The notes below the pieces were generated by a model that saw only the letters and a list, made by a program, of their open reading frames with translations, was not told the DNA's origin and did not search any database. The position numbers and the translations under genes were made by a program. Shown here in pieces: positions 115-27,739 of a stretch of DNA of 64,000 nt. How positions within the stretch are numbered: position 1 is the first letter of the stretch; each line of letters begins with the position of its first letter. The stretch comes from Escherichia phage kvi: the sequence record MN850615.1; one strand, written 5' to 3'.

Positions 115-270
115 TTAAATTTCTTCTACAGTAAAGTCTTCAATGTTGTTGTGCTCGGCGAACGTTGCCAGACCAGCATTCCATGCATCATCCTCAGAGA
201 AGAATACACCGTAACGTTCATATCCTTTAGCGCCTTCAAATTTAACCATTAATTTGTGAGTATGTTTCAT
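115..270 (-). CDS. hypothetical small protein (51 aa, MKHTHKLMVKFEG...)
   Basis: track ORF 115..333 trimmed to ATG at 270 with AAGGAGA SD; the longer start would lie inside the promoter at 302..330. Confidence 0.5.
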   Translation of the reverse strand: MKHTHKLMVKFEGAKGYERYGVFFSEDDAWNAGLATFAEHNNIEDFTVEEI

Positions 271-301
271 TTTGATTCTCCTTCGTTGTCTTGATGAGTT
301 T

Positions 302-330
302 AGTATAGGGGATCGCCGATCCCCTGTCAA
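302..330 (-). promoter_or_regulatory. sigma70-type promoter with palindromic 17-bp spacer (TTGACA-ggggatcggcgatcccc-TATACT)
   Basis: read directly on minus strand; spacer is a near-perfect GC-rich palindrome. Confidence 0.6.
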
Positions 331-339
331 CAACTATTT

Positions 340-552
340 TTAATTTTTACCCGCTCGTGCATTAATACGCATTTTCTGAATAGCCATGATCTGGCTTACT
401 GCTTCTTCTTTACGTTCTTGCGTGATAACGTGACCAGATTCCGCAAACTCTCCCGCAACTTCTTCTACGATCTCGCGAACTTGAGAACGTCCAAATATGC
501 GGTTTCCTTCGTAGCTCATAAATTCTGTTACTACTTGCTCGATAGATTTCAT
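340..552 (-). CDS. hypothetical protein (70 aa)
   Basis: track ORF 340..597 trimmed to ATG at 552 with AGGAGAATCAC leader. Confidence 0.5.
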   Translation of the reverse strand: MKSIEQVVTEFMSYEGNRIFGRSQVREIVEEVAGEFAESGHVITQERKEEAVSQIMAIQKMRINARAGKN

Positions 553-581
553 GTGATTCTCCTTTCGTTTGGTATGGTAGT

Positions 582-610
582 ATAATACTACTCCCATTTC
601 TTTACGTCAA
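582..610 (-). promoter_or_regulatory. sigma70-type promoter (TTGACG-N17-TATTAT)
   Basis: rc of 605..610 TTGACG; rc of 582..587 TATTAT. Confidence 0.5.
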
Positions 611-613
611 CAA

Positions 614-775
614 CTATTTTAAATTATTTTCGACCTTCACCCATTCCGCGTATTCTTGCGCGGCTACTTTCGGATTTAGTCCGTCTTCGTACATTGCTTC
701 AAGTAATGCTTCGTCGGTGGGCTTATACCCTAGATAAGCCTCCACCTGATTTTTCCAAATTTTATACCAGTTCAT
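614..775 (-). CDS. hypothetical small protein (53 aa, MNWYKIWKNQ...)
   Basis: track ORF 614..844; internal ATG at 775 chosen because upstream gene ends at 780. Confidence 0.4.
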   Translation of the reverse strand: MNWYKIWKNQVEAYLGYKPTDEALLEAMYEDGLNPKVAAQEYAEWVKVENNLK

Positions 776-779
776 ATTA

Positions 780-1052
780 TCACCAGTCAAGAGCGCGTGT
801 CTCTGCGTCTTCCCATGCTTGATCCATAACAGCCTTGAAAACATATTCTAAAGTATCATCTTTAGAGAATCCGAAGACCTTAGACGGAATATCTTCAATT
901 GCTACTCCCGCGACTTCTGCATTACGCGCTTGGCAATAATGCAACTCTAAGTTATCGAGATAGCGACCGCCTAATTTCTCCATATCATCCCAGCATTTCC
1001 AGTAACCTACTTTATTTGCAATCGCTAACACCTTGCTGTTTTCGTTGTTCAT
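780..1052 (-). CDS. hypothetical protein (90 aa)
   Basis: track ORF 780..1115 trimmed to ATG at 1052 with AGGAGAATCAAAG leader. Confidence 0.5.
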   Translation of the reverse strand: MNNENSKVLAIANKVGYWKCWDDMEKLGGRYLDNLELHYCQARNAEVAGVAIEDIPSKVFGFSKDDTLEYVFKAVMDQAWEDAETRALDW

Positions 1053-1082
1053 CTTTGATTCTCCTTTTGTTTGGTATGTGTG

Positions 1083-1111
1083 TATTATGCAATGATGGAT
1101 TTGTGAAGTCA
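1083..1111 (-). promoter_or_regulatory. sigma70-type promoter (TTGACT-N17-CATAAT)
   Basis: rc of 1106..1111 TTGACT; rc of 1083..1088 CATAAT. Confidence 0.5.
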
Positions 1112-1120
1112 ACAACTTTT

Positions 1121-1152
1121 TAAAATAAAAAAGCCGACCACACGGATCGGCT
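1121..1152 (-). terminator. rho-independent terminator (hairpin agccga...tcggct followed by U-run on minus strand)
   Basis: GC stem at 1131..1152 preceded on plus by aaaataaaaa, i.e. a T-run downstream on minus. Confidence 0.55.
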
Positions 1153-1162
1153 TAATAATCAG

Positions 1163-1558
1163 TTACTTACTAAATTTCTTTTTGGCTTCGTCTACCGCAT
1201 GAGATGCCAGTACCGCAGCCGCATGTGCACTTTTATCTGTGTTGCAGAGAACGCCCAGATAAACATCACGCCAAAGTTTAATCATCTCGTAGATCATATC
1301 AATATCATTTTCTTGTTTGTTGGCGATGCTATTCGTCGTTATCTGGTAAGGTAACGGCTTGATCTGTACTGGTTCCGCCATCGGGCTAATCGGTTTCGGA
1401 TCAGTCATAATAGGTGCTGTTGTGGGTGGTGTTTTCCATACGTCATTATTCCACGGTTTAATCGTTGTATCGTAAAGTTTATAAGGATTTTTGTCTGGAT
1501 TAACCATCCAGGCATGATGAGTACCCAAACCATTTGAAGTGATGCGTCGTTCAGTCAT
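1163..1558 (-). CDS. hypothetical protein (131 aa)
   Basis: track ORF. Confidence 0.5.
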   Translation of the reverse strand: MTERRITSNGLGTHHAWMVNPDKNPYKLYDTTIKPWNNDVWKTPPTTAPIMTDPKPISPMAEPVQIKPLPYQITTNSIANKQENDIDMIYEMIKLWRDVYLGVLCNTDKSAHAAAVLASHAVDEAKKKFSK

Positions 1559-1760
1559 ACTTTCCCTCCAAAAATTCTTTCATCAAATAGTCTATCGTTG
1601 CTCTGTGTTCTGGTGTGTTTGTTATCTCTGCTAACTTATTCAGAGATTCAATAGTGATCCGGTTGGATTCTTCCAGTGTTTCAACGACAATTGGAACAAT
1701 CTTTTTATTGTTGTACACAAATGCAATATAACCGCCTTCTGGATATTCTTTCATAATCAA
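1551..1760 (-). CDS. hypothetical protein (69 aa)
   Basis: track ORF, overlaps neighbours by a few nt. Confidence 0.45.
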   Translation of the reverse strand: MIMKEYPEGGYIAFVYNNKKIVPIVVETLEESNRITIESLNKLAEITNTPEHRATIDYLMKEFLEGKYD

Positions 1761-3103
1761 CCCTTCTTAAGTTCTTTAAGATCTTTCTTATATTCCTTCA
1801 TTGCGGTCGTCTTTGTCCAATACTCATATTCACTATGATGTTTATCGGCATCTTTGACCAGTCGATCATACTCTTCTTGAGTAACGCTATACAATGGCAT
1901 AGAAACTAGCTTATCGGCGTATGGACGCAGTTTTTCATGTCCATTGATGGATTGCATTACCTCGGCCTTTTTCTTGCCCTGTAGCTCGATTTCGCCCTTA
2001 ATTACGCGGTCGATAAATTCAGCTTTAGCCATTGCATAATTGTATGCTTCCAGTGTTTCCGCTTGCATCAATTCAATGCGTTTATCGACATACCCTAATC
2101 GGATTTCGACGAATCGACGGATCAGATCGCTCGCTTTCTCGAATACTTCTACTAAACCACGTTCATTAACCACTACGATATTCTGGGCTACTAACTGTGT
2201 TAGTTTAAAATCCTTCATGATTTGCTCATGTCGAGCGGATTCATCTTCGCTTTTGAAATAATCGCGTTTCAGTGTTACTTCAAATCTGAATCCGTCCTTA
2301 GAGCAACGGTCATTATACGATACAATCAGATCTTTTTCTTCCAGTGCATCCAGTACCGCTACATATTCTTCACGGTCGAACTTATAAGGAACTTCTGATA
2401 TTGTCAGTTTAGTCTTGCCGTTTAGTTCATATGTACCCTCAAGAATCACACCATCGCGATCATCTCGCGGGATAACTTTACCCGTGAATTTCGGGAATTG
2501 AACATTAGGTTCTTTATCCAGTTTTCCGGCAAGTGCTAGCTCTGTGCATTCAATAAGGCTTTCCAGTGAATGCGGTAAAATGTCAGTTTTATACCCTGAA
2601 GCAATACCACTAATACCATTAGCCAATACCATTGGCACAACTGGCAAGTAGAACGCTGGCGGGATGTGTTCCAGATCTTCGTGCTTAGGTGCGCAATTCA
2701 TATCTTTATAGATTTTAAAGAAGTTTTCATGCACACGAGCAAAGATATAACGTGCTGCACCTGCTTTCTGGACTAAACGAGATCCGAAGTTACCTTGACC
2801 GTCAAGCAGTGGAGTATTATTGCTCCATGTATTCGCCATGAGTGATCCGGCTTCTACGGCATTAGTTTCGCCGTGGTGATACCCCAATTCAGCAACACCA
2901 GATCCAATATCTGCCATCTTACGGAATTTCTTACGGTCGCCTTTACTCTTTTGAAGTGCGCACTCCATAACAAAGCGTTGCACTGGTTTAAGCCCATCTA
3001 CTAATTGAGGAATCCCGCGTTCCTCGGCAGAATAGATCGCATATTCCTTAGCTTCATTATGTACAATGCTTTCAAGGCTGCGGTAAGTAACTGATTTATT
3101 CAT
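1757..3103 (-). CDS. 52: DNA topoisomerase II medium subunit (GyrA-like)
   Basis: GyrA-type motifs GLKPVQRF, LDGQGNFGS, AARY; ATG at 3103 with GAGGTGAAG SD (track start 3118 is GTG); position downstream of rIIB as in T4. Confidence 0.85.
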   Translation of the reverse strand: MNKSVTYRSLESIVHNEAKEYAIYSAEERGIPQLVDGLKPVQRFVMECALQKSKGDRKKFRKMADIGSGVAELGYHHGETNAVEAGSLMANTWSNNTPLLDGQGNFGSRLVQKAGAARYIFARVHENFFKIYKDMNCAPKHEDLEHIPPAFYLPVVPMVLANGISGIASGYKTDILPHSLESLIECTELALAGKLDKEPNVQFPKFTGKVIPRDDRDGVILEGTYELNGKTKLTISEVPYKFDREEYVAVLDALEEKDLIVSYNDRCSKDGFRFEVTLKRDYFKSEDESARHEQIMKDFKLTQLVAQNIVVVNERGLVEVFEKASDLIRRFVEIRLGYVDKRIELMQAETLEAYNYAMAKAEFIDRVIKGEIELQGKKKAEVMQSINGHEKLRPYADKLVSMPLYSVTQEEYDRLVKDADKHHSEYEYWTKTTAMKEYKKDLKELKKG

Positions 3104-3110
3104 CTTCACC

Positions 3111-3473
3111 TCATACACGCTTACAAATCACATTCTTTACTTTATCAGATTTATCAGCCCAATCCAATAGCCATTTTAACGGAAGGATTGACACAATAAA
3201 CGGGGCAGCAATCAAAGCAAACATGATACACCGGATAATCAGGAAAGTGCAAGTAACAAAGCTAGCGATACTGATCCCGACAAAACAAAATACCATAGAA
3301 AACAGAGTAATGATATAGAAAGGCCAGAATACCCACTCCCGCATCTTAACGCCTTTGTATTCTCTGAATTGCTTAAAATCTACAAACAACTCTCGGATAG
3401 ACGCGTACAGGACCGAAAAATCATCTTTCATTGCTCTGAATGAGCAATCTTCTATTTTAGAATGACCTAGCAT
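3111..3473 (-). CDS. small membrane protein (120 aa, multiple hydrophobic segments)
   Basis: track ORF; hydrophobic stretches. Confidence 0.5.
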   Translation of the reverse strand: MLGHSKIEDCSFRAMKDDFSVLYASIRELFVDFKQFREYKGVKMREWVFWPFYIITLFSMVFCFVGISIASFVTCTFLIIRCIMFALIAAPFIVSILPLKWLLDWADKSDKVKNVICKRV

Positions 3474-3475
3474 TA

Positions 3476-3769
3476 TTAACCGCCTTTAACCATTGATACA
3501 GGAATTGTTTTCTGATTTGTGTATAAGTGGCCTACTTCAATTTTTTCTTGAATCACCACGACGTTACAATATCCACTGTCTTTAAGTTTTCTGATAATGA
3601 CTCGCTTTTGTTCGTCGGTGATAGGATTGACTGTTCTCACCAATTCACCGCAAATAATAGCACCATCTTTACAATTACCAGTAACTTTCATGCTACGACC
3701 GTGAACAACAACCACGTCACCGTAAATCACATTTTCGTCGTCGTATTTGGTAATAACCGTGACCGTCAT
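3476..3769 (-). CDS. hypothetical protein (97 aa)
   Basis: track ORF; preceded by hairpin aggccgctttgcgcggcct at about 3776..3800. Confidence 0.5.
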   Translation of the reverse strand: MTVTVITKYDDENVIYGDVVVVHGRSMKVTGNCKDGAIICGELVRTVNPITDEQKRVIIRKLKDSGYCNVVVIQEKIEVGHLYTNQKTIPVSMVKGG

Positions 3770-3814
3770 AATGTATTCCCTCTAAGAAAGGCCGCGCAAA
3801 GCGGCCTATGTTGA

Positions 3815-4147
3815 TTATTGTTCTACAGTATAACCGTTGTTTTCAAGCCATGCAATAACAATCTTTTCGCCAATTTCATCGAGCATTTCATCAGCGCCAT
3901 ATTCTTTAATGAAAGTCGATGGATCATTATTGCTTACTACGTGCTGGATCACAACATGTTCAGGAATTGCGTCTAGTAGTTCGCTATGATCATACTCATT
4001 AACGATATCTTCAACACTAACATTATTAACCAAATCAACATCATCCATAGTCACAGTAACGCGACCGGACGGACGCAATGAATATTGGCTACTTTCAACT
4101 TCAACATGTGCACTTTCGCAAGTAACTTTCATATCAACCATAATCAA
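3815..4147 (-). CDS. strongly acidic small protein (110 aa, about 23 D/E vs 5 K/R)
   Basis: track ORF; composition counted by eye. Confidence 0.5.
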   Translation of the reverse strand: MIMVDMKVTCESAHVEVESSQYSLRPSGRVTVTMDDVDLVNNVSVEDIVNEYDHSELLDAIPEHVVIQHVVSNNDPSTFIKEYGADEMLDEIGEKIVIAWLENNGYTVEQ

Positions 4148-4155
4148 TTCCTCTG

Positions 4156-5157
4156 TTAGTAATGGCTAAAACCTTCGGTCACATCTTCAACCACATAGTA
4201 ACGATGACAGCGCATTTTGGCATTTGCATAATCTTTCGGGATACTTACAACGTGACGCGGATCAACTTTGCATTTAATGATTCGGCCTCGTCCACCGCCA
4301 TAGTGCGGAATATAGTGTTTCGCTGCAACGTGGAGGCCATTAGAGCAAGTGCGATCATCATCTGGGTCCACGTCTTTACGCTTCATTTTAACCGTGCGAC
4401 CTGGGCTATTATCAAACGTATGCGTAAAGAAATCTTTATAATCAACATCAACACGTTTCCATGCATAGAAACAACCATCTTCCACGATCTCAATGTCGTT
4501 GTGCTCTAAGAAGTCAAATAGACGATCTACGGCCTTACGGCTAGGGTTTTTCTTGCACTTCTCAAAGAAGTTAAGATAGTGCGTATATGGCTTATTCTCT
4601 TTAATCGACTCCACAACTCGACGAGTCAGATTATTATCAAGAACAATATTATGATAATACACAATACCATTTTCGATACGGAAAGCGCCGTGATAATATA
4701 CTTCAACCGCTTTCTTAATGTCAATCAGCGTAATAGCTTTGATGAAATCATTATGTTTAATCGCTTCCAGTGCTTCCTTAAAGTTAACATGTGATGGATC
4801 AGCAGTATAAACAATGTCACCACATGTAATAGTAATAAACTTAGTTGAGGCTATGGCTACGATTTTTGAGGAAGTAGTTACGGGCTTTTTTGCGCGTTCA
4901 CCGCCTTTTCCTTTACTGGTTTTACGGCGTGCTTTACGTTTTTCTAGTGCCTTGCGACCTTCCGCTACTGCGTCTTTCTGAATCAGTAATACACGGGAGG
5001 CAGTGCGACGAGATACACCAAATGCTGCCGCAAGTGCTTCGCGGGTAGTAAACTTACCTTCGCCCCACTGTTTAGCCAGTTTGATTTGTTTCGCAGAATC
5101 CAGACATTGAACGTTACGGTCAGAGACGGTGATTTTTGCTTTAGTCATAGTATTCAT
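4156..5157 (-). CDS. rIIB: RIIB-like protein
   Basis: C-terminal half recalls T4 rIIB (..KCKVDPRHVVSIPKDYANAKMR..VVEDVTE..); adjacent to rIIA; alternative ATG at 5148 has the better SD. Confidence 0.8.
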   Translation of the reverse strand: MNTMTKAKITVSDRNVQCLDSAKQIKLAKQWGEGKFTTREALAAAFGVSRRTASRVLLIQKDAVAEGRKALEKRKARRKTSKGKGGERAKKPVTTSSKIVAIASTKFITITCGDIVYTADPSHVNFKEALEAIKHNDFIKAITLIDIKKAVEVYYHGAFRIENGIVYYHNIVLDNNLTRRVVESIKENKPYTHYLNFFEKCKKNPSRKAVDRLFDFLEHNDIEIVEDGCFYAWKRVDVDYKDFFTHTFDNSPGRTVKMKRKDVDPDDDRTCSNGLHVAAKHYIPHYGGGRGRIIKCKVDPRHVVSIPKDYANAKMRCHRYYVVEDVTEGFSHY

Positions 5158-5353: not shown

Positions 5354-7462
5354 TTAAAATTTAACATTCTTAACCAGTTTCATAAAGTCTTGTGCGCGTT
5401 TGTCATTATGCAGAATACGATACCAGTTATCGACAATATCATACAGTAACGGGCTATTCTCTTTAAACTTCGCACAAACTGCTTTAATTCGTTCGTTTGC
5501 TACCGTGAATTTTTCATCACAAATCTTTTTAGTTTCTTCGTCCATAATCCAACGAGTACGAAGGAGTAACTTGGAAACCTCTTTATTATAATGACGACCG
5601 TACAGTCTGTCAATAAATTCTGGAACACAGCGTTCTAGTTCATCGTCATGAAACAACATAGTGATCACACCCAGATATTCGCCATACCCCAGATGATTGG
5701 TCTTAACCTTCTTAGCCAGACCAGCCAGCTTACCGCGAACAAATTCTAGCGCACATTCCAATTGTTCGTCAACGAGATATTTTTGTGTCTCGTTTCGAGT
5801 AATAATATACTTTGTTACCCCGAAGTAGTCAAGCGCCGTGTGTAATGTATTTTCACTATGGATCGATTTACGACTACGGCTTTCGAATGCATCACCTACG
5901 CGGAACATGTGCAAGCCTGATAACTCGCGAATCTCTGCCGCTTTCATGTGATGGCTGGTTTTATGCCAACTGTCACCAATCTTTTCCATGATATACACGT
6001 TAGGCAGCTTAGGAGTCGCTTCACGTTGTGTACGCTCGGTCTTCTCCGGTTTAACTGCTTTAGCACGCAGATCATCGGCCTCAGAAACTTTAATCACGGT
6101 CATTTCAGAATCATCATAATACTGTTTGATGTACTCGAAAGTTTCCATATGTTTTTCGTTGCGCTGACGGAACACCAGTACCTTTTTATTGATGCCGTAT
6201 TCCTGGACCATACCGTTAAGAGTCAGTGCGCGTAGTTTCGGTTTATCGGTATCATCAATAAGACACATAATATCTTCTTTATGCATCCATACAAAATGCG
6301 TAATGTTGTATTGACTGCTAACGAAAGCAGGGCGCAATTTACTGATTGTGTGACGAGTACGATACAGAGTATACACCTGACCTTCTACGTCATTAGGCGA
6401 ATCTTTACCCGCATTCACAAACTTATTATAGATTGCTACCGGATCATCCCACTGCCCGATCTTACCCATCTTGCTAATAATATTGCGTTGAGTCGATGAA
6501 TACTCGCTCATAAATTGCGCAAGTTTACGCTCTGTTTTAATGTTGGCGATCTTCTCTTTGACCTTTTCCAACATCATTTCATTGATTTCTGCAATGCGTT
6601 TTTCGATGTTCGCTTTAGTCTCAATTGACAAGTGAACTTCTTCACGCGATGGCATCAGGTCCAGATCACCCAACTCAAAATTAATGTAAATGGTCTGGTG
6701 CTGGCGGTTTACAGCTTCTAACCATGTTCCGCGAACATATTCATACGGGATCGGATACTGGATCTTACCCATGATTGCATATACTACATAGGAATCGTTA
6801 TCACGCCCATTACAAACATAATAATTATCAAAGCTAGGGAAATAATTAATTTCGATTGCATTGATATTAGGTTTGTGTTCCCCAAAATGACGCAGTACAA
6901 ATTGCGCTTCTCGATGCCATGTCTGAATATCTTTTTCTTTCACCGGAATAGTGATTTTCAGACCATTGTCTTCATAGGTCGGTTCGTCGAAAATCTGCAC
7001 CATTTTCGGCATAGAGTTTTGCACAAATGCCGTAAAGCCATAAGCGCGACCATTGTAATAGTTTACGATTGTAAAGGTGTCAGTGTAGCTATAAGCAGAT
7101 TTCGCACCTAAACCAAAAGACCCGATATAGTCATTAGTCTGGTCTTTTGTTGATTCAAAGTAAACCGTAAACAGTTGTTCTAATTCTTTCTTAGACGGAA
7201 TACCAGTACCATAATCACGCACAGAGAAATACGGTTCGATTGCAGTCGGTAAATGAATATCAAACGGACGATCTAAGGTTCCGGCTTCTTTGTGAGTGTC
7301 GGTAGCATTGCACGAATACTCACGGACGCAAGCACGCTCACAATATTGATAAGTGTTCTTAGAAAGCACCATAAAAGCCTTGCTACTTGCTTTCAGTGAA
7401 AAATCAACCGCACCGCTCAGGTCACTGCCAAATACTTCTTCATTATCAATATGCATTTTCAT
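5354..7462 (-). CDS. rIIA: RIIA-like protein (GHKL-type ATPase-like N-terminus)
   Basis: 702 aa; segment ..YIGSFGLGAKSAYSYTDTFTIVNYYNGRAYGF.. recalls T4 rIIA; synteny between topoisomerase gene and rIIB. Confidence 0.85.
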   Translation of the reverse strand: MKMHIDNEEVFGSDLSGAVDFSLKASSKAFMVLSKNTYQYCERACVREYSCNATDTHKEAGTLDRPFDIHLPTAIEPYFSVRDYGTGIPSKKELEQLFTVYFESTKDQTNDYIGSFGLGAKSAYSYTDTFTIVNYYNGRAYGFTAFVQNSMPKMVQIFDEPTYEDNGLKITIPVKEKDIQTWHREAQFVLRHFGEHKPNINAIEINYFPSFDNYYVCNGRDNDSYVVYAIMGKIQYPIPYEYVRGTWLEAVNRQHQTIYINFELGDLDLMPSREEVHLSIETKANIEKRIAEINEMMLEKVKEKIANIKTERKLAQFMSEYSSTQRNIISKMGKIGQWDDPVAIYNKFVNAGKDSPNDVEGQVYTLYRTRHTISKLRPAFVSSQYNITHFVWMHKEDIMCLIDDTDKPKLRALTLNGMVQEYGINKKVLVFRQRNEKHMETFEYIKQYYDDSEMTVIKVSEADDLRAKAVKPEKTERTQREATPKLPNVYIMEKIGDSWHKTSHHMKAAEIRELSGLHMFRVGDAFESRSRKSIHSENTLHTALDYFGVTKYIITRNETQKYLVDEQLECALEFVRGKLAGLAKKVKTNHLGYGEYLGVITMLFHDDELERCVPEFIDRLYGRHYNKEVSKLLLRTRWIMDEETKKICDEKFTVANERIKAVCAKFKENSPLLYDIVDNWYRILHNDKRAQDFMKLVKNVKF

Positions 7463-7476
7463 AATATAATCCTCAC

Positions 7477-7734
7477 TTAATTAAAATCTTCTTTGTCCAT
7501 CTCTGCGTAGATTACATCCCACGCCCATAAATCAATAAACGCATTATATGTCACGGTGCAATCGTTGTCAATCACTTCTTTCGCATATTTCTTGATGTTT
7601 TCGTAGGAAACTTGCGGGTCAATTTTGTGTTTACGAAGGTGCGCATATTCATATCTCAGACATTTCATAAACAGGTCCATCGATTTCTTTTCTCGATGAC
7701 ACTTGGCGATCATAAAATCAAAACTTCGACTCAT
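7477..7734 (-). CDS. hypothetical protein (85 aa)
   Basis: track ORF. Confidence 0.5.
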   Translation of the reverse strand: MSRSFDFMIAKCHREKKSMDLFMKCLRYEYAHLRKHKIDPQVSYENIKKYAKEVIDNDCTVTYNAFIDLWAWDVIYAEMDKEDFN

Positions 7735-7745
7735 TTTTCTACTCC

Positions 7746-7940
7746 TTATACATTTTCAATTACCCATTGCAGATGGGCTTCTGCGTCAACCAGTTCAGCG
7801 CGGCTTTTCTCTAAGCACTTGCTGTATTCTTTACGTTCCCACTCGGCAATTTCGTTTTTCAGGACTTCTTCATAGTAAGCAATTACGCCTTTCAGGTCTG
7901 AAACTTTACGGCTTGCCAATTCGATGTAATGGTTACGCAT
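7746..7940 (-). CDS. hypothetical protein (64 aa)
   Basis: track ORF. Confidence 0.45.
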   Translation of the reverse strand: MRNHYIELASRKVSDLKGVIAYYEEVLKNEIAEWERKEYSKCLEKSRAELVDAEAHLQWVIENV

Positions 7941-8127
7941 TTTGATTCTCCTTTGTTACTAGATAACGAATTTGGTCTTGCATTGCGATCAGTTCCCAGC
8001 GTGCTACTTTCATCATGGAAACTGACTCTTTGAACATAATATTAGCTTTTTCCTTCTCCCCTGTCAAGTAGATTTCTGCAATTTTTTCACAAAATTTTTG
8101 AGTTTCTTCATTCTTAAACGGTTTCAT
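7933..8127 (-). CDS. hypothetical protein (64 aa)
   Basis: track ORF 7933..8136 starts at TTG; ATG at 8127. Confidence 0.45.
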   Translation of the reverse strand: MKPFKNEETQKFCEKIAEIYLTGEKEKANIMFKESVSMMKVARWELIAMQDQIRYLVTKENQNA

Positions 8128-8157
8128 ATAAGTCAACCTTTTGTTTTCGATGGGGAC

Positions 8158-8186
8158 ATTATGATATATCCCCGATCCAGTGTCAA
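8158..8186 (-). promoter_or_regulatory. sigma70-type promoter (TTGACA-N17-CATAAT) flanked by inverted repeat
   Basis: rc of 8181..8186 TTGACA; rc of 8158..8163 CATAAT; inverted repeat ggggac..atcccc brackets the -10. Confidence 0.5.
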
Positions 8187-8193
8187 CAGATTT

Positions 8194-8493
8194 TTAATCT
8201 TTTTTCAATGCATCCATTACTCGCTCTGCGATCAGTTCTCGTAAGCACTGATAACCATGATATTTGATGGCAATGTCACGCAGATCATTAACCAGTTCCC
8301 GTACTTCATGGTCTTTCAGATCGTCTCTGTATTTCGATTTAACCGTGTCTTTAGGTGGATTGTGGATAACCTGAAAACCTTGTTCTGCAATCACTGCGGC
8401 TTCTCGCTGGCGTTCATGTTGTACTGTATTTTTGATCAGGTCTACTTCCATGAACTTTGTCATACTCATCATCATGTTATTCTTTTTGCTCAT
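8194..8493 (-). CDS. hypothetical protein (99 aa)
   Basis: track ORF 8194..8529 trimmed to ATG at 8493 with GAGGA SD; longer start overlaps promoter. Confidence 0.5.
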   Translation of the reverse strand: MSKKNNMMMSMTKFMEVDLIKNTVQHERQREAAVIAEQGFQVIHNPPKDTVKSKYRDDLKDHEVRELVNDLRDIAIKYHGYQCLRELIAERVMDALKKD

Positions 8494-8527
8494 TATTAAA
8501 TCCTCATAAACGAAAAGGGAGACTCCC

Positions 8528-8555
8528 ATTATAGAGAATCTCCCTTGTATGTCAA
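8528..8555 (-). promoter_or_regulatory. sigma70-type promoter (TTGACA-N16-TATAAT) followed by short hairpin and U-run
   Basis: rc of 8550..8555 TTGACA; rc of 8528..8533 TATAAT; gggagactccc at 8517..8527 then T-run. Confidence 0.5.
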
Positions 8556-9115
8556 CTAAAATTTAAAGATGCAAACTCCCCGTGATGAATTTTTGCATAT
8601 TCATCATATGCTCTAGCGGCTTCCTCCTGAGTAGCAAACGATCCTATGTATTTTCTGTATCCGTTTATCCTTATTTGTGCTTGCCACGGTCTTTTGCTAG
8701 ATCCTTTGCGATGAGTAACACCATTATATATGCTCGTGCACCCGTCAATTTTCTTTTTATTGTACATGTTTTGTTGTTGTGTTGCCTCCCGTAAATTTGG
8801 TGGATTGTTGTTTTCTGGATTCCCGTCTATGTGGTCTATTACCTTAACCTGTGTTCCATATTCAAGAAACCAGACAATTCTATGTACAAGATATGTAGAT
8901 GTTCTCTTTTTAACCTTATTGTAAACATCTATTGCCAAATGACCGTAATTTAACTTTTTTGTTTTTACTTTATCACCGACTCGGTAGAAATATCCCTCTG
9001 GTAGACCATTAAAAGACGGACTATTTGTTTTGTGATATAGAACACCTTCCGTGTGTTCAAATCTGCGTTTTAATTCCTCTTGAATTTCAGTATTCCAAAA
9101 TTTCGCACTTTTCAT
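8552..9115 (-). CDS. free-standing HNH endonuclease with C-terminal AP2-like DNA-binding domain (homing-endonuclease-like)
   Basis: HNH-type motif ..HRIVWFLEYG..IDHIDGNPENNNPPNLR..; AP2-like ..RPWQAQIRINGYRKYIGSFATQEEAARAYD..; start overlaps topoisomerase stop (TAATATG). Confidence 0.75.
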   Translation of the reverse strand: MKSAKFWNTEIQEELKRRFEHTEGVLYHKTNSPSFNGLPEGYFYRVGDKVKTKKLNYGHLAIDVYNKVKKRTSTYLVHRIVWFLEYGTQVKVIDHIDGNPENNNPPNLREATQQQNMYNKKKIDGCTSIYNGVTHRKGSSKRPWQAQIRINGYRKYIGSFATQEEAARAYDEYAKIHHGEFASLNFS

Positions 9116-9116
9116 A

Positions 9117-10940
9117 TTATGACGCCATCCATGCCTTCCTCATGTCTGAATCTTCACTATAGAGCAAATCGAATAGCTCTTTATAGTTTTCCGGTAACGT
9201 GATGATCTCCATGACAGGATCGTTGATCACGCGATGATAGTCTGATTCTGTGAGCGATGCTAAACCTTTGATATATCGAATGTTGTAACCTTTGATATTA
9301 TCTCGGTCGGTCTCAAAATCTTCTAGGTCATAATACCATCGAACATCATCACCTTTCTTTGGTTCCGCAATGATAATAGGTGTTTTGATAAACCGGATTC
9401 GTCCATCTTCGAACAATTCAGGCCAACGAGCAAAGAAAGAGATCAGACTAGGTTTAATAGACCCGATCCCGTCAGTATCAGCGTCTGTCATAATCGCAAT
9501 ATTTTTGTATTGCATAACTTCCAATGCATCAACACCAAATTGCAAGCCAGTGATCGCCATGATGTTAAAAATTTCGGCGTTCTTAACGATCTTTGCCTCC
9601 GGTTGTTCCCACGTTGTAAGAGTTTTGCCTCGCAACGGGAAACCTCCATGTAAATCTGGATCACGTACAGAGACCAGATAGTTGATCGCGGAATCACCTT
9701 CCGTCAAAAACAGGGTAGTTTCTGCGTCAGTTCCAATAAGGTTAGCTTTAACGTGTTTTGCTACCTTAGCCCGTTTCGCTGCTTTTGCTACCTTAGTCGC
9801 TGCCGCTTTATCTGCTGCCTCTTTGCGTGCCAGGACTACAGCAATAATAGGCATGATAATGTTTTCTTTCTTCGCAATGACTTTAGCCAGCTTTTTAAAA
9901 TCAAGATCAATATGACGCTTGATATCACCAGTTGGATTAGTCAATCGTTCTTTTGTCTGTGAATCAAAACGAAGGTTAGGCAATTCACGAACAATAAGAA
10001 TACAGGTCAATCCAGACTTAACCGCAGCTTTAGTAACATCAACCTTATGTTCTTTCTTGATTCGTTTTACAATCTCTTCACAAAGATCATCTGTCACGTA
10101 GTCTACGTGTGTTCCCCCGTTTTTGGTAAACAGACCATTAGCAAAGGATACTGATTTAAAACCTTCTCCCTCGACCGCAGGAACTAGGGCAAGTGAAAAG
10201 TTTTTATCTTCAATGACAAACGGATCATCATTGTATAGTTTAGCATAATCCTTGAACTTACTAACAATACGTTTACCATTAAACTTAAACGTGATCTTAG
10301 GAAAGATTACGCTCAATGATTGCAGACGATCATGAACAATATCTAAAACAGAGTTGTCCATCATATAACCTTCGAAGTGGTCGAAGTCTGGGCAAAATGT
10401 AACCTTTGTTCCCTTCAATTTTGATGGTTTCGATGACCATGTGATATTTTCAGCACCGTTTGTACATTGAACGGTCATTTCTGTTTCTCCGTCACAGGTC
10501 ACACCAGTAAACCAATCGCTAAAGAAATTTGACAACGACGACCCCACACCGTTCATCCCTTGCGTTAATCGATTGGTATCATCAAAGTTAGACCCTGCTT
10601 TTGTTCGTGTCCATGCGGCTACAGGTTGCGGAATCTGCGTGCCCTCTGGAGTAGTAACCATATGTTGAGGAATACCGCGACCATTGTCTGTTACCGTAAC
10701 AATATTGTTTTGGATATCGACGCTAATCACATTGGCAAATTCAAAATTAGTGCGAATCGCCTCGTCTACAGAGTTGTCGATGATCTCATCAATGATTTTA
10801 ACCAGTCCTGGAACATATGAAATTTTTGTCCATTTACCGAACAGGAAACGTTGGTGTTCTTCGTAAGTTGTTGATCCTATATACATTCCTGCACGCTTAA
10901 GGACATGTTCACGATCAGATAAAATGCGAAACTCACTCAT
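9117..10940 (-). CDS. 39: DNA topoisomerase II large subunit (GyrB-like ATPase and TOPRIM; T4 gp39 and gp60 equivalents fused)
   Basis: 607 aa; N-terminus ..ILSDREHVLKRAGMYIGS.. is the GyrB signature; single uninterrupted ORF. Confidence 0.9.
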   Translation of the reverse strand: MSEFRILSDREHVLKRAGMYIGSTTYEEHQRFLFGKWTKISYVPGLVKIIDEIIDNSVDEAIRTNFEFANVISVDIQNNIVTVTDNGRGIPQHMVTTPEGTQIPQPVAAWTRTKAGSNFDDTNRLTQGMNGVGSSLSNFFSDWFTGVTCDGETEMTVQCTNGAENITWSSKPSKLKGTKVTFCPDFDHFEGYMMDNSVLDIVHDRLQSLSVIFPKITFKFNGKRIVSKFKDYAKLYNDDPFVIEDKNFSLALVPAVEGEGFKSVSFANGLFTKNGGTHVDYVTDDLCEEIVKRIKKEHKVDVTKAAVKSGLTCILIVRELPNLRFDSQTKERLTNPTGDIKRHIDLDFKKLAKVIAKKENIIMPIIAVVLARKEAADKAAATKVAKAAKRAKVAKHVKANLIGTDAETTLFLTEGDSAINYLVSVRDPDLHGGFPLRGKTLTTWEQPEAKIVKNAEIFNIMAITGLQFGVDALEVMQYKNIAIMTDADTDGIGSIKPSLISFFARWPELFEDGRIRFIKTPIIIAEPKKGDDVRWYYDLEDFETDRDNIKGYNIRYIKGLASLTESDYHRVINDPVMEIITLPENYKELFDLLYSEDSDMRKAWMAS

Positions 10941-11039
10941 TATTAAACCTCTTCATAACATAACCATAACTTACTGCAACCGCCACAAAGACGGCTGCAA
11001 CAATCATATTAAAAATTGAGTGATTGTCAAGTATATGAC

Positions 11040-11213
11040 TCATGACACGCGCACATTTTTATCGTAATACCCGCCATTAATCCCGCGCGGGGCAGTTAAT
11101 CCCTGTTTACATTCTTTACCGCATTCAGGGCATTCTGCCTTTTCACGCTCGGAAATTTTGCGGATTTTCTGAAATTGACCGTGTTCTTCACAAGAATAAT
11201 CGTATAATGGCAT
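11040..11213 (-). CDS. small zinc-ribbon protein (CxxH..CPECGKEC)
   Basis: track ORF 11040..11294 trimmed to ATG 11213, just after dexA stop (TAATATG). Confidence 0.5.
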   Translation of the reverse strand: MPLYDYSCEEHGQFQKIRKISEREKAECPECGKECKQGLTAPRGINGGYYDKNVRVS

Positions 11214-11214
11214 A

Positions 11215-11883
11215 TTATCCCCTTTGTTTCTTAACTGAATTTGGATCTGGATTTTCTGGTAGGTCTTCCAGACCCATAGCATAACGTTGTGCATAGATTA
11301 GCATAAGAATATCGCGAGCGCAATCATGAATTGCATCATGTGCGATAAAACCATCTAGCGTACCCATTGGTAACGGACACTCACACATCCCGCGATGCAT
11401 CAATGTACGCTCAATGGCGGTGCGAACATCTCGGATGTTCCAGAATCGCACAGGTTCAAGATTGAACGTCTCTCGTGTATTGTGTGCATCGCGGATCATA
11501 TCAACTAGTAACGGAATATCAAACGCATTACCGCGTGACCACAATACGGATTTAACCGGATCTACCCCTACGGCTTCACAGAATGCGTTAAAACGCGCTA
11601 AACCTTCTTTAGTTGATACTTCCGTACCATTTGTGATTAATTGCTTTCTCATGCCTTCTGAGGCGGTATTCTTCCACCATTCAACCACACCATGATCAAA
11701 CACCCTTACACCTTTCTGGGAAGGAATATCAAATTTTACCAGAAAGGAATTGTCAACCAGTTCTTTAAATGTAGGTGGGTTGTGCGGATCTTCTTTAAAT
11801 CCGATTGCCGCCATATTGATAACCGCCCCATCAGGCGGATAACCTAAACTTTCAAAGTCAATCATTAAATCCACTGGAAGCAT
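11215..11883 (-). CDS. dexA: exonuclease A (DnaQ-like 3'-5' exonuclease)
   Basis: track ORF trimmed to MLPVDLMIDFES.. (222 aa); exo motifs D-x-E and ..HDAIHDC..; recalls T4 DexA; position between dda and topoisomerase gene. Confidence 0.8.
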   Translation of the reverse strand: MLPVDLMIDFESLGYPPDGAVINMAAIGFKEDPHNPPTFKELVDNSFLVKFDIPSQKGVRVFDHGVVEWWKNTASEGMRKQLITNGTEVSTKEGLARFNAFCEAVGVDPVKSVLWSRGNAFDIPLLVDMIRDAHNTRETFNLEPVRFWNIRDVRTAIERTLMHRGMCECPLPMGTLDGFIAHDAIHDCARDILMLIYAQRYAMGLEDLPENPDPNSVKKQRG

Positions 11884-11884
11884 T

Positions 11885-12127
11885 TTAAATATCCTCCGCG
11901 ATATGCCGGAACAACTCCAGATCGTTTTTATCCAGAATGAAACCGCTACAATCAATAATCCCGTTACCGTAATTATCGGTTAACAGTCGTTCCGTTGCCA
12001 TGTATGCGCGTACTTTGTTGTTAAAATTCATTACATGTTGTGCATAGTCACAATGAATCTTTTGACGGTTCCACGCGACAATTGATTGTAGATGTATTAC
12101 ATTAGCCACATTATTAATAACAACCAT
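11885..12127 (-). CDS. hypothetical protein (80 aa, MVVINNVANV...)
   Basis: track ORF 11885..12190 trimmed to ATG at 12127, which overlaps the upstream small ORF stop (TGATATG). Confidence 0.45.
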   Translation of the reverse strand: MVVINNVANVIHLQSIVAWNRQKIHCDYAQHVMNFNNKVRAYMATERLLTDNYGNGIIDCSGFILDKNDLELFRHIAEDI

Positions 12128-12360
12128 ATCAAAACCCTCGCTTAGTGGAATGTTCTGACATTTTATTGATACATACAGCTTGGTAGTCACGAGATTTTTT
12201 TGACGAATTAAGAGCTACGGCCAAAAAATCCTGTAACTGTTCGTTTGTCATTGTTGGCTTACACCGCGTATCTAAACTCTTCTTTCTTCTAGCTTCATTA
12301 GCCATATCAAAACCCTCGCTTAGTGAAATATTCGATCATTTTATTGATACATTCAGCTTC
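12124..12360. repeat. two copies of a ~57-bp direct repeat (12124..12183 and 12302..12360, roughly 85-90% identical)
   Basis: read directly: ccatatcaaaaccctcgcttagtg..attttattgatacat.cagctt in both copies. Confidence 0.8.
12129..12305 (-). CDS. small ORF (58 aa) ending ..CINKMSEHSTKRGF
   Basis: hand-translated; not in track; C-terminal 20 codons are a diverged copy of the next ORF's 3' end. Confidence 0.35.
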   Translation of the reverse strand: MANEARRKKSLDTRCKPTMTNEQLQDFLAVALNSSKKSRDYQAVCINKMSEHSTKRGF

Positions 12361-21882: not shown

Positions 21883-23359
21883 TTAAATGTCAAACAGGTC
21901 AGTCAGAGAAGCAACTTTCTCATATTGCAGCTTTGCAGCCGTGGTAATGTTCTCCAGTGGTTTGACGAAAGTCTTATTAAACAACAAAGGCCAGTCTAAC
22001 CACTTTAACACCTCTGATTCAATTTCTGGAGGAATACGAGTACCGGACAACCAACCAAAACAGATTTCTCCAAACGGATTTCGATCTTTCAGCGGTACAA
22101 TCATAACCTTCTCGCCCTCACGAATTGGATCTAGTCCGAATTTTCGAGCATTACGATTATAACACAATACACTCTTAACCGCATACGGACAACCCTTAAT
22201 CGGATACCCGTTTGAATCGCTGTATTTCTGTAGGTTGTTTGCAGATGATACCGCAGCAACCTCAAGATAATCAAGTTTTCTAAATTCTTGCTCAAAAATA
22301 CCGTAGTATTCCTGCAATGACTCTTCACCTTCCTGCAACATACGGCGAATACATTCTTTCAGTGATTTCTGACATGCTTTAGGGGTGGAGCTACGTTGCG
22401 TTTCCAAGCCCATGATTTTTAGCTTAGGTTCAGCAAAGCGCGTTCCTTCCATATCCCAAACATTAAGAGCATAACGCTTTTTGCCAGTCCAGAATCCACC
22501 GATACCCGCAGATTTCAACGGAGGACCAGCAATTGCCTCACGGTCCATAAACATCAAGTGCTCATAGTTGTTCATGTACTCGCATAACTCGCGATATCCC
22601 TTGTCGATAATAGGTTCCATTCGATGTTTACCGAAATTATCAAGGAAGTCAACAAGTTTTTCGGTATCGTCGAAACGGTCTTCCCCGCCAACCTTATCAA
22701 CAACATTGTTAACCAGCACATAAACGGAGTCAGTATCACAATAACGAACATATGCAAAATCGGTTGTTCCGCAAAGCTCGTTTAAGTATTCGTTAATCTT
22801 ACGCTCAATCCACTGAATTGCAAGCTGACCAAACAAGGTGATCGCACTAGCGTTACGGAGATCATAAAAACGGAATTTAGGATTCCCCAACGCACCATAA
22901 AGGGAGTTGATCAAAACTTTTCGAGAAAGCTGGTTTGTATTGCACAAGATCGACTCGTCTTTACATTCTTCCAGCAATTTCTCTAAGGCATCTTTACTTA
23001 ATTCAGAAAGCATCGATTTAAACGCTTCATCAAAGTCGTGACGTACTTCAACGCTATAGCTAATGGTTCCCCCATAAACATGATTTTCATCGTGTAGAAT
23101 CGCTTTACAGAGTTCAGCATTGCGATCACATGCCAACATCATGTTTTTGTACTGCTTACGCTGATCGAATACCTTTTTAATCTCAATCGGTACGATACCG
23201 TGAATATCTTTTCTATACATCCATCCGTTAGGAGAGCAAGAATACTCATCACTCGGACGTGGTGCAGTTTTATTGATATACTCGTGCATCGGTGCAGCAT
23301 CAAAAGATCCGGCGATTGTTTCCGGCGAAATGTTAACCTGACGGATGATTGATGGATAC
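21883..23359 (-). CDS. 43: DNA polymerase (family B), exon 2
   Basis: track ORF 21883..23289 extends upstream in frame to 23359 (..YPSIIRQVNISPETI..), continuing exon 1; exons together give about 892 aa. Confidence 0.85.
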
Positions 23360-23499
23360 CATTATGTTCAGCGCGGTTCGCTACTCCCGCGCCCGTTCTC
23401 TTACGAACTGCTACATGTCACCATGTAGATCAGACTATATCACATTCTCATAGAGAATCCTGCCATTTCGAATCGCTTGATTCTACTCTACTCGGTTCG

Positions 23500-24324
23500 T
23501 TACCCTTTCGATAGTCGTTGAACAACTGCATCTTTAAGCTCATTTTGATCAAACGGTGTTCTCTTACAGTACCCGCTATAATTCTTAGCAAAAGGTTTCT
23601 TCTTACCAAAGATCTCTTTTCCTGAATTATGTGATTCAACAAGAAAATTCACCATTTCATCAAATGTGAAACTTGCAAATTTAGCATAAGTTTCATTACG
23701 TTTTGACATTATTTTACTCATAACTTCCGGTCGTTTAGACGCTGAATTTTCGCGTTTCTCGCCAGTATTAAATGATACCAACTCACCGGAAACATATCTA
23801 GGATCATCACAACTAACTCTAAACCGATTTCCTTCCTTATCCTTAACGATAACAGTATTCTTTAGCTTTTCTGCCATAGAATCAAGACCTTTTCGTATAG
23901 TGTCCTCATCAGCCCCGAAATATTTCTTTCCGCTCATATCGGTTCTGGCTTTTCCGGTCTTGTTTTCGGATATTTTCAGTCTAACTTCCTCTCGCTTGGC
24001 TGGGTTATTGTCTCCAGCGAATGCATCTTTGGTTAACGCCTTCACTTTATCGTCATAAGATCCTCTAGAGATGAAAGCATATGCTCTCTTGCATTCACCG
24101 TTATTGAATATTAAGCACAATAACCGATGCGCCTCGACGTGGTCTTCAAACTTAAGCCTAACAAGATTCCATTTATCTAACCGATATTCAGGGAACATTG
24201 ACTTCGGGCATATATGATGCACCTCGGAATATTCTTCACCCTGATACGGATTAGACACCAGTTTAATGTAGTCGTTTAATGCTTCCTCGTTATGTATTTC
24301 GTACTTTCTTAAAATGTCTTTCAT
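23500..24324 (-). CDS. intron-encoded HNH homing endonuclease (274 aa from MKDIL...)
   Basis: HNH motif ..EVHHICPKS..WNLV..H..H; GGAGG SD before ATG at 24324; TATAAATA upstream. Confidence 0.8.
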   Translation of the reverse strand: MKDILRKYEIHNEEALNDYIKLVSNPYQGEEYSEVHHICPKSMFPEYRLDKWNLVRLKFEDHVEAHRLLCLIFNNGECKRAYAFISRGSYDDKVKALTKDAFAGDNNPAKREEVRLKISENKTGKARTDMSGKKYFGADEDTIRKGLDSMAEKLKNTVIVKDKEGNRFRVSCDDPRYVSGELVSFNTGEKRENSASKRPEVMSKIMSKRNETYAKFASFTFDEMVNFLVESHNSGKEIFGKKKPFAKNYSGYCKRTPFDQNELKDAVVQRLSKG

Positions 24325-24347
24325 CTCGCGCCTCCAATGTATATCAA

Positions 24348-24355
24348 TATTTATA
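24348..24355 (-). promoter_or_regulatory. T4-type late promoter motif TATAAATA upstream of the intron ORF
   Basis: rc of 24348..24355 is TATAAATA, about 24 nt upstream of the HNH start codon. Confidence 0.55.
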
Positions 24356-24473
24356 TACATTATAAGACACGTTAGCTCAAAATGCAACTGCTGCTGATTG
24401 TCTCCTTAGAGATTTCCCAGCAATTAAGCAGGTTATTCGATCACTGTCACCAGTGAAAGCCCCATATCAGTTT

Positions 24474-25675
24474 AGGGAAGTAAGGTCAAAGCTCATCATC
24501 CAACGGTAAGCATTCGGCACAGGTTCTTTTACGAATGCGCCTGGATACGTCTGCTTAGGCTGTATCTTATTTTCCGGTACTACTTTACCCTCAGCTTTCA
24601 GAGATCCGAAGATAATAGCATCCCATACTTTCATCGGGTTATAAACATGGTTAAATTTAATCTTTGCATAGAAACATAGACTATACACCAGATCGATAAA
24701 TCCACGCTTTTTATCAATCGCCAGCACACGATCAACGTCGCCGATGTTATAATCGATGTAAAGTTGATGGTTGTCATCACGCAATTTCTTTAACGGACCA
24801 TCATAATCAACCTTACCGATTCCTGTCTCATATTCAGCAACATAATCTAACGCATATGTTGGTTGAGTCGTAAAGCTAAATTTCTTGTATAGGTCAATAT
24901 AATCAAGGCTTTCGATCCCCATGATCGTAAATGCTTCACGCTCGTTGCCAAAATCATCCTGTGAGATTCGGGATTTAATCTTACCGCACGGGCTTAGACG
25001 GTTAGCGGTTCTACTTCCGAACTTATTACTGATACGTTTAATGATATATGGAATATCGAATGTTTCTGTGTTCCAGCCAGTGAAACCAACGGGTCGGTTT
25101 TCCTCAAAGAATCGGATGTATTCTAACAGCAATTCATCTTCTGTGTCATAGACGTTATAAACAACGCGCTCTACAATATCAGGTCGAAGAATAGACTTGC
25201 TAGATTCCCAGATTTCACCGTTTTTTCCTTTCAAATCAAATACAAAGAAACGATCATGTACGGAATCATAATGCGTAATTGCATCGATAGGATATTTCGC
25301 TTCTTCTGGTTTAGGAAATTCTGGGGCAGTGACCTCGATATCAACCCATGCTACACGGATTTTATTTCGGTCATATCGAATCTCTCCTTTATACGTATCA
25401 GACAGATAGGAGATGATAAAATCATCCATCCCTAGCGCCTCTTGCCCCATTTCTCCCATCTTTTTACGCCATTTGTTGGCCTCGTTCATAGAGGGGAATT
25501 TTTTAGCAATGCAAGGCTTGCCATAGATATCTTTATAATTCGTAACCATACCAGGCGCGGCATGATGAAATAAAGTTGGCGTATATTCAACGTAACGCTC
25601 TTGTTCTTGTCCAGCATCATCAATATAACGCTCGTAGATCTTATCACCTACTCGCTCACATGACAGAAAATACAT
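24474..25675 (-). CDS. 43: DNA polymerase (family B), exon 1
   Basis: 3'-5' exo motifs (..VAWVDIEV.., ..YNIGDVD..); ATG at 25675 with AAGGAG SD; in-frame TGA lies 7 nt inside the intron. Confidence 0.85.
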
Positions 25676-25707
25676 AATATAAACTCCTTCACTTACGAAA
25701 GACACTC

Positions 25708-27674: not shown

Positions 27675-27739
27675 ATAATCACCTCTCACAAATTACATCA
27701 TTAAAACGGGGAGTATTTATACTCCCCACAAACATTATA

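Follow-up and report, generated by a model that had tools for sequence, protein, structure and literature searches.

A probable homing group I intron in DNA polymerase gene 43 of an RB49-like coliphage

Gene 43 and its insert

BLAST comparison of the region with phage genomes placed the 64-kb stretch of DNA analysed here (the window) in Krischvirus, RB49-like T4-type coliphages of the Straboviridae; the closest phage record was 99.0% identical over 97% of the window's first 25 kb. On the minus strand, gene 43 lies in the usual replication module, flanked by regA/62/44 and uvsX, and is interrupted by a 1,114-nt insert (Table 1). We took ATG 25675, which matches RB49, as the start of the gene rather than GTG 25705 of the longest open reading frame (ORF).

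Table 1. Features of the gene 43 locus and helices assigned in the predicted intron core
Feature	Position	Strand	Details
Gene 43 exon 1 (PolB DNA polymerase)	24474..25675	minus	1,202 nt; 3' end UUU GAC CUU ACU UCC CU; Pfam DNA_pol_B_exo1, 1.8e-16
Gene 43 exon 2	21883..23359	minus	1,477 nt with stop; 5' end G UAU CCA UCA, (..L)YPSIIRQ
Predicted group I intron (IA2-like)	23360..24473	minus	1,114 nt, A24473 to terminal G23360
P1/P10 region	24459..24479	minus	Sequence inspection; UCCCU kept in same-site homologs, missing from intron-less alleles
5' half of core	24382..24456	minus	P2, P3 5' strand, P4, P5, P6 5' strand
3' half of core	23360..23531	minus	P6', R/P7, P7.1, P7.2, P3', P8, S/P7', P9, P9.1, P9.2, tail UGAACAUAAUG
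R element GUUCAACGACUA	23523..23512	minus	Holds P7 GACUA; within 3' end of endonuclease ORF
S element GAUAUAGUCUG	23441..23431	minus	Holds P7' UAGUC
P2			UCACUG-GUGA-CAGUGA
P3			CCUGCU/GGCAGG
P4			UGCUGG/UCAGCA
P5			UCUC/GAGA
P6			GC..UGCAU/AUGCA..GU, around 850-nt loop
P7			GACUA/UAGUC
P7.1			Reduced to about 4 bp in window allele (sequence inspection)
P7.2			GAAUC-AAGC-GAUUC
P8			AUUCUC-UAU-GAGAAU
P9			CUACAUG-GUGA-CAUGUAG
P9.1			GUUC/GAAC
P9.2			GCGCGG/CCGCGC
HNH homing endonuclease gene	23500..24324	minus	274 aa; in P6 loop
Shine-Dalgarno GGAGG	24331..24335	minus	6 nt ahead of ATG 24324
18-bp hairpin burying endonuclease Shine-Dalgarno	24327..24371	minus	dG -18.7 kcal/mol, z -3.7
TATAAATA, T4-type late promoter consensus	24348..24355	minus	Hairpin 5' arm/loop
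TTTGAGCTAACGTGTCT, mimic of exon-1 flank at insertion site	24365..24381	minus	17 nt; candidate operator or target fossil

Joining 25675..24474 to 23359..21883 gives an ORF of 2,679 nt and 892 aa; RB49 gene 43 is also 2,679 nt. An initial annotation of this DNA had proposed the same joining, of 24474 to 23359, with a polymerase of about 892 aa as the outcome, and had suggested alignment of the spliced product with gp43 homologs as a check. Run here, that alignment returned RB49 gp43 as identical over 892 residues: the joined gene differs from that of RB49 at 45 nucleotides, all synonymous, and at 0/892 amino acids. RB49, like most Krischvirus genomes, is without exactly the 1,114 nt of the insert and matches only 587 flanking bases. 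This comparison of the joined exons with RB49 fixes the junction at ..UCC CU|G UAU CC.., where it divides the Leu codon of the PolB motif A catalytic sequence (DLTSL|YPS) between the second and third bases. The reading frames on either side are as described earlier: the N-terminal ORF ends ..MMSFDLTSLN-stop, the stop being TGA, and the C-terminal frame opens directly after a TAA (TAA-W-YPSIIRQVNISPETI).

Six of the 45 synonymous differences are clustered at the 5' splice site, at positions -3, -4, -5, -6, -9 and -11. Together they convert UUA ACA AGU CU of RB49 to CUU ACU UCC CU, creating the UCCCU used in P1 (below). A search of intron-less phage records for the allele with the spliced junction did not find it, the best match being RB49 at 91.7%. 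An intein, ribosomal bypass, a frameshift and a sequencing error were also considered as sources of the interruption, and were rejected on the stops in all relevant frames, the 1,114-nt length and the 98-99.6% identity in independent genomes.

The ribozyme core and its relatives

The insert can be folded as a group I ribozyme. Exon CCCU and A24473 pair with the internal guide UGGGG (24464..24460) to form P1, which is only 5 bp long and has a U24474.G24463 wobble at the splice site, and a candidate P10 can be drawn between GAUAU (24468..24464) and GUAUC of exon 2 (23359..23355). The U before the 5' junction (U24474) and the G before the 3' junction (G23360), both pointed out in the initial annotation, supply the U.G pair in P1 and the terminal intron G found at group I splice sites. 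Also present are the conserved core P3-P9, the P, Q, R and S elements and the P3/P7 pseudoknot. The P-like AAUUGCUGGGAAA (P3/P4), Q-like AAUCAGCAGC and S-like GAUAUAGUCUG sequences had been recognized correctly beforehand, whereas R had not been placed; GUUCAACGACUA at 23523..23512 fills that position and a full core, P1-P10, can be drawn.

An alignment of six core sequences gave comparative support for this fold. RNAalifold independently predicted P2, P3, P4, P5, P7.2, P8, P9, P9.1 and P9.2, with 29/58 pairs compensatory. In the structure derived here, which includes the P7 pseudoknot, standard pairs occupied 95.1% of cells, compared with 32-45% when the pairing partners were slid by 1-3 columns; double changes were seen in 28/58 pairs, and 0/500 shuffles reached the observed values. 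P4 and P7 show no variation and so carry no information for or against the fold. Inspected by hand, the inner P6 helix shows covariation (UGCAU/AUGCA in the window, AGAAU/AUUCU in the intron of Pectobacterium phage POP12). Among the extra helices of subgroup IA2, to which we presume this intron belongs, P7.2, P9.1 and P9.2 are backed by covariation and P7.1 is clear in POP12 and in a phiKZ-like intron.

A covariance-model search, another check suggested at the outset, gave a match below the formal cut-off. With the gathering score of Rfam RF00028 at 50 bits, a scan of the window at the gathering threshold returned no match. In E-value mode, the model scored 30.6 bits (E 1.4e-5) over 23411..23671, with R, P3', P8, S and P9 aligned at high posterior probability, and a second match of 13.2 bits covered the P3-P5 segment (24392..24422). 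The insert was the only Rfam match with E<0.05 in the whole 64-kb window; a tRNA scan found none. The window falls below the threshold because the model is interrupted by the 850-nt ORF loop in P6. In E. coli phage PC3, the homolog at the same site has a short loop and a decayed endonuclease gene; it scored 58.6 bits and thus passes the threshold, and ORF-less relatives scored 79-97 bits.

The region matched 69 phage records, with the full insert in 11 at 98.1-99.6% identity and a shortened insert in two JSE records. Distribution within Krischvirus is patchy, with the intron in 13 of about 60 records. Intact copies are found in the window, ECD7, MIZ4/5, JEP8, ELT4, G2494, G5211, Cognac, PTE-Eco09 and JK32, a decaying copy in JSE, and empty sites in RB49 and most Krischvirus genomes, so that one genus contains every state a homing element should pass through (empty, intact and decaying). 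A sensitive BLAST search with the intron only extended this range to POP12 (Straboviridae; 65% identity over 92% of the intron) and to many Ackermannviridae, including Dickeya phage LIMEstone1 (I-LimII), Salmonella phage KE30 and PC3, and also returned ORF-less core homologs in other genes, an Acinetobacter phage terminase and a phiKZ-like RNA polymerase. The site is identical in POP12, LIMEstone1, KE30 and PC3 (..UCCCU|intron|(G/A)UAYCC..; DxxSL|YP).

Protein searches with the endonuclease gave 42 homologs. Seven were looked up on their contigs: six led to eight metagenomic contigs (L132-L134, L137-L140 and L143) with the intron at the same polB site, and the seventh (P0038, on L141) is free-standing and splits polB elsewhere. 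An eighth look-up (P0041, on L142) had no polB context. Homologs from Krischvirus, POP12, the LIMEstone type and L132-L140 all retain the UCCCU/GGGG pairing, and L143, with a more diverged polB, has an equivalent GCCCU with GGGGGC. Same-site homologs span three phage lineages. A scan of viral contigs for the P/Q motifs returned >120 loci in many genes, none of them recognisable at the polB site; with that many loci, the core family must be very broad.

The endonuclease gene and its leader

The HNH ORF reported in the initial annotation (EVHHICP..WNLV..H..H, preceded by a GGAGG Shine-Dalgarno sequence) was confirmed, with GGAGG at 24335..24331 and the ATG at 24324. Its 274-aa product matched PHROG 12434 'HNH endonuclease' (1.9e-130), carries the HNH catalytic motif on a beta-beta-alpha unit, and is 57% identical to the ORF of the POP12 intron and 35% identical to I-LimII. 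Pfam and NCBIfam contained no HNH family for it (NUMOD3 appeared only at E 0.27, below the cut-off), sequence searches of the PDB, whether with the 274-aa protein or with a profile of 42 sequences, returned only noise, and Foldseek found nothing for the product in the PDB. The last ten codons (..DAVVQRLSKG-stop) double as P6', J6/7, P7 and the start of P7.1. The VVQRLSK peptide is also the consensus of the HNH homolog family, and its conservation fits a double constraint, on protein and ribozyme.

Upstream of the ORF, the ribosome-binding site is buried in the 45-nt hairpin listed in Table 1, and 0/200 shuffles were as stable. A late-promoter motif ahead of the HNH ORF had been noted earlier, and TATAAATA is indeed present at 24355..24348. 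With 3 copies versus 5.7 expected, the bare motif shows no enrichment in the window, and it carries weight because it is conserved at the homologous place in relatives: the exact TATAAATA occurs at the equivalent spot in POP12, L132, L134, L137, L138 and L139. POP12, L132, L134 and LIMEstone1 also have hairpins over their own Shine-Dalgarno sequences, of different primary sequence; in LIMEstone1 and KE30 a hairpin is present but the exact TATAAATA is absent. In the window, TATAAATA occupies the hairpin's 5' arm/loop, so RNA initiated a few bases beyond it would not include the 5' arm. This is the I-TevI-type layout, a ribosome-binding-site-sequestering hairpin with a late promoter within it, and POP12, L132 and L134 share it with the window. 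Experiments have demonstrated the arrangement for I-TevI, and it has also been described for I-TevII, I-TevIII, segB and mobE; when the I-TevI hairpin is disrupted, ribosomes enter the core and thereby reduce td splicing (PMC2988022).

Splicing, homing and a target-like element

Taken together, the exact excision, the U.G pair and terminal G, the full core, the covariation and the same-site homologs support the initial reading of 23360..24473 as a group I intron; the HNH homing endonuclease gene that it carries is intact. We put the probability of this interpretation, under which the element is predicted to splice and to home, at about 0.93.

The same locus could be read as genes in pieces, with a free-standing HNH gene having split gene 43 into 43A and 43B, these being translated separately and assembling, and the group I-like sequence being inert. 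Aeromonas phages 44RR and 25 and Aeh1 nrdA are cited as precedents, the homologous HNH gene on L141 splits polB with no ribozyme motifs, L136 has a second, intron-less polB split further downstream, and GenBank records annotate two polymerase CDSs together with an HNH or hypothetical protein. However, the break in gene 43 sits within a catalytic motif, and exon 2 has neither an in-frame start nor a Shine-Dalgarno sequence before Met 23289, 23 codons into the exon; the in-frame codons upstream are TAA-TGG-TAT and a nearby ATG is out of frame. The 23 codons ahead of Met 23289, which include the motif A Tyr and Ser, show only synonymous changes relative to RB49. Given an exon 2 with no start of its own, these constrained codons and viable isolates, we infer that the polymerase must come from ligated exons, and the inference is a strong one. 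Compensatory changes across families also keep the ribozyme core, where inert sequence would show none. The lack of an exon 2 start and the conservation of the upstream codons make a non-splicing 43A/43B split, the fallback of the initial annotation, very unlikely.

We also give little credence to the idea that the intron is real but non-autocatalytic in vivo, relying on a protein cofactor or on the endonuclease as a maturase, or that the HNH gene is inactive and the intron immobile. The short P1 and the reduced P7.1 of the window allele would suit an assisted ribozyme, and endonuclease gene decay is seen in both JSE and PC3; against this, the intact ORF keeps 99% identity over 11 phage records, no HNH catalytic residue varies among homologs with as little as 27% identity, and it is established that the related T4 IA2 introns self-splice (PMC2988022).

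Under the homing intron reading, early and middle gene 43 transcripts would fold the ribozyme and self-splice with guanosine, with the endonuclease ribosome-binding site meanwhile locked in the 18-bp hairpin so that ribosomes would be kept out of the core. Late in infection, transcription from TATAAATA within the hairpin would produce RNA without the 5' arm, allowing the HNH enzyme to be made. During mixed infection, the enzyme would cut intron-less gene 43 alleles of the RB49 type near the insertion site, and repair from the intron-bearing genome would copy in the intron and adjacent exon codons. The patchy distribution, the JSE decay and the clustered exon changes at the junction give homing indirect support, and a decaying copy is what such a cycle would predict. 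With intact, decaying (JSE) and empty sites all in one genus, homing, co-conversion and loss could be measured in a ready natural setting. The element would be another clean case of a homing intron that targets an essential enzyme at its most conserved codons, and gene 43 should be annotated as one spliced 892-aa CDS rather than as two 'DNA polymerase' fragments and an HNH gene.

Parts of this system are already known. Introns that carry their own homing endonuclease gene are familiar selfish elements, and JSE gene 43 has been reported to contain a putative group I intron whose former endonuclease gene is truncated (Petrov et al. 2010, Virol J 7:292; PMC2993671), so the element in the window is a rediscovery. 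The JSE copy lies at the same site and is 99% identical over the shared 464 nt, but has lost 650 nt of the endonuclease gene between AAGAAT repeats and has its promoter mutated to TATAGATA, whereas the window has the intact 274-aa HNH gene and unmutated TATAAATA. The JSE literature gave no structure, splice sites or regulation, and we found no open-access paper that deals with the intact Krischvirus allele or with how it folds or splices. The additions made here to the known element are the exact splice sites, the covariation-supported fold, the regulatory layout and the cross-family distribution at the same site. For the polymerase gene of LIMEstone1, I-LimII had been listed as a putative intron (Adriaenssens et al. 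2012; PMC3296691). It shares a homologous core, an HNH enzyme (35% identical) and the same site (DLNSL|YPH), and differs in its phage family and polymerase lineage, in its longer P7.1, P8 and P9.1, and in its promoter box, CTAAATAC.

A close parallel is T4 td with I-TevI, which shares an IA2-type core, an ORF in the P6 loop whose 3' end runs into the core, a late promoter lying within a hairpin that sequesters the ribosome-binding site, and, at that promoter, a sequence resembling the target (PMC2988022). The host gene of td is thymidylate synthase and its enzyme is of the GIY-YIG type, in contrast to a DNA polymerase and an HNH enzyme in the window; regulation and autorepression have been demonstrated for I-TevI and are predicted for the window. 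I-TevIII (RB3 nrdB intron) and I-HmuI and I-BasI (Bacillus phage DNA polymerase introns) are likewise HNH enzymes of phage group I introns in replication or nucleotide-metabolism genes. The window ORF had no detectable sequence match to any of the three, and I-HmuI and I-BasI lie in family A polymerases, unlike the PolB host gene here. In review descriptions (PMC2993671, PMC2988022), the group I intron in gene 43B of the T4-related Aeromonas phage 25 (Petrov, Ratnayaka, Karam 2010) has no endonuclease gene of its own, interrupts a gene that was itself already divided into 43A/43B and has free-standing GIY-YIG seg43 as its proposed mobiliser; these descriptions set it apart from the window intron.

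The only part of the locus that goes beyond textbook expectation is a conserved mimic of the target beside the late promoter. The 17-nt TTTGAGCTAACGTGTCT matches the RB49 sequence ending at the insertion site, TTTGACTTAACAAGTCT, at 13/17 positions, with 5/5000 shuffles as good. In 6/8 of the other same-site homologs tested, including POP12, L132, L137, L139 and L140 (1-20 of 5000 shuffles as good for these five), the element matches its own exon at 12-13/17, so that matches of this quality occur in 7/9 of the introns compared, counting the window. L134 and LIMEstone1 have 11/17 matches to their own exons, and the element is absent from L138 and L143. A gapped local alignment of the target with the promoter region was not significant alone (359/2000 shuffles); the signal is seen only in the ungapped 17-mer test across homologs and in the codon-position analysis. 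In the latter, mismatches fell at 25/40 codon third positions versus 12/96 first and second positions, with a Fisher P of about 1e-8 that overstates independence because the sequences are related. The element also follows lineage-specific exon codons: exon GAG GAC TTG AAC TCC (EDLNS) faces element GAA GAC CTA AAT ACT (EDLNT) in LIMEstone1, exon FDVTS (GAC GTG) faces element LDVTR (GAC GTA) in L134, and exon GAT TTA faces element GAT TTG in L139.

The I-TevI operator is a mimic of its homing site over its late promoter (PMC2988022), and by analogy the 17-nt element may serve as an I-TevI-style autorepression operator; alternatively, it may be the fossil of a former insertion next to a target. 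Mismatches concentrated at wobble positions would suit an enzyme whose target recognition depends on non-wobble bases. If the element is an operator, it extends I-TevI-type autorepression to an HNH enzyme and gives a sequence-only read-out of the target bases that the enzyme recognises. A wider reading, which we put forward tentatively and hold to be somewhat short of an even chance, is that the intron and HNH gene form one long-lived cassette that moved between Straboviridae and Ackermannviridae, always to the same Leu codon of PolB motif A, with the exon-tracking 17-nt copy marking the bases read by the HNH enzyme and acting as an I-TevI-like operator. The free-standing homolog on L141, which has the same leader, might then hint at how the endonuclease joined the intron.

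Polymerase genes interrupted more than once

Besides carrying the intron at motif A of gene 43 (polB), several relatives have further breaks in the same gene. In a metagenomic T4-like phage (contig L136, also L132 and L133), the motif-A intron with its HNH gene is present, and exon 2 after it reaches a stop ~95 codons on. A DNA_pol_B C-terminal ORF of 390 aa lies 2.8 kb beyond that stop; between the two are five small ORFs and a NUMOD3 ORF (368 aa, reverse strand). Given the early stop and the distant C-terminal ORF, the polymerase is coded in three pieces. In the Ackermannviridae phages LIMEstone1 and KE30, the polymerase exon 3' of the same-site intron is just 480 nt long. Next comes another endonuclease gene, I-LimIII, encoded on the other strand, so that polB has two interruptions.

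Loci and features discussed in this part
Sequence	Coordinates	Strand	Feature
Window	27714-27721	-	TATAAATA motif, exact; one of only three in window
Window	25675-25705	-	gene 43 start
L136 (ENA ERZ27260095 k141_49174)	5596-12297		motif-A intron with HNH
L004 (LIMEstone1)	2188-2307		same-site intron, short 3' exon
L007 (KE30)	2188-2307		same-site intron, short 3' exon
L141 (Logan SRR33696486_8791)	820-1640		free-standing HNH homolog
L143 (ENA ERZ3455838 NODE_715)	780-2000		same-site intron, diverged polB
L001 (JSE)	1835-2298		aligned to window 24245..23596
L033 (IMGVR_UViG_3300045988_163920)	235-5139		P/Q core motif matches

Variant forms of the intron and its endonuclease

A free-standing HNH homolog (32% identity) splits polB in the fingers region on contig L141. 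No P/Q/R/S motifs were found near this gene; its leader, TTTGACCTAAATACTCT, is identical at 15/17 positions to the LIMEstone1 intron element, and motif A (..TCTCT/GTATCC) is unbroken 300 nt upstream. This arrangement may represent a stage preceding the endonuclease's joining of the intron. Another contig, L143, has an intron at the same site in a more diverged polB (SDANAL/YPHM), with only ~20 nt from P6 to the endonuclease ATG. Its leader is without the hairpin, the late promoter and the target mimic; not every member of the family, then, carries the regulatory leader.

The JSE intron is a decaying copy of the window's intron: 650 nt of the endonuclease gene are deleted between two AAGAAT direct repeats, and the late promoter position reads TATAGATA. 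Separately, one viral contig (L033) has five P/Q core motif matches within 5 kb, which suggests an unusually intron-dense region.

Possible late promoter by gene 44 and the gene 43 start

The tabulated TATAAATA motif lies 25 nt upstream of the ORF start of clamp-loader gene 44 (27689) and may be a late promoter of the 44/62 genes. For gene 43, the longest ORF begins at GTG 25705, but the start in common with RB49 lies at ATG 25675. Automatic ORF calling would append 10 spurious residues.
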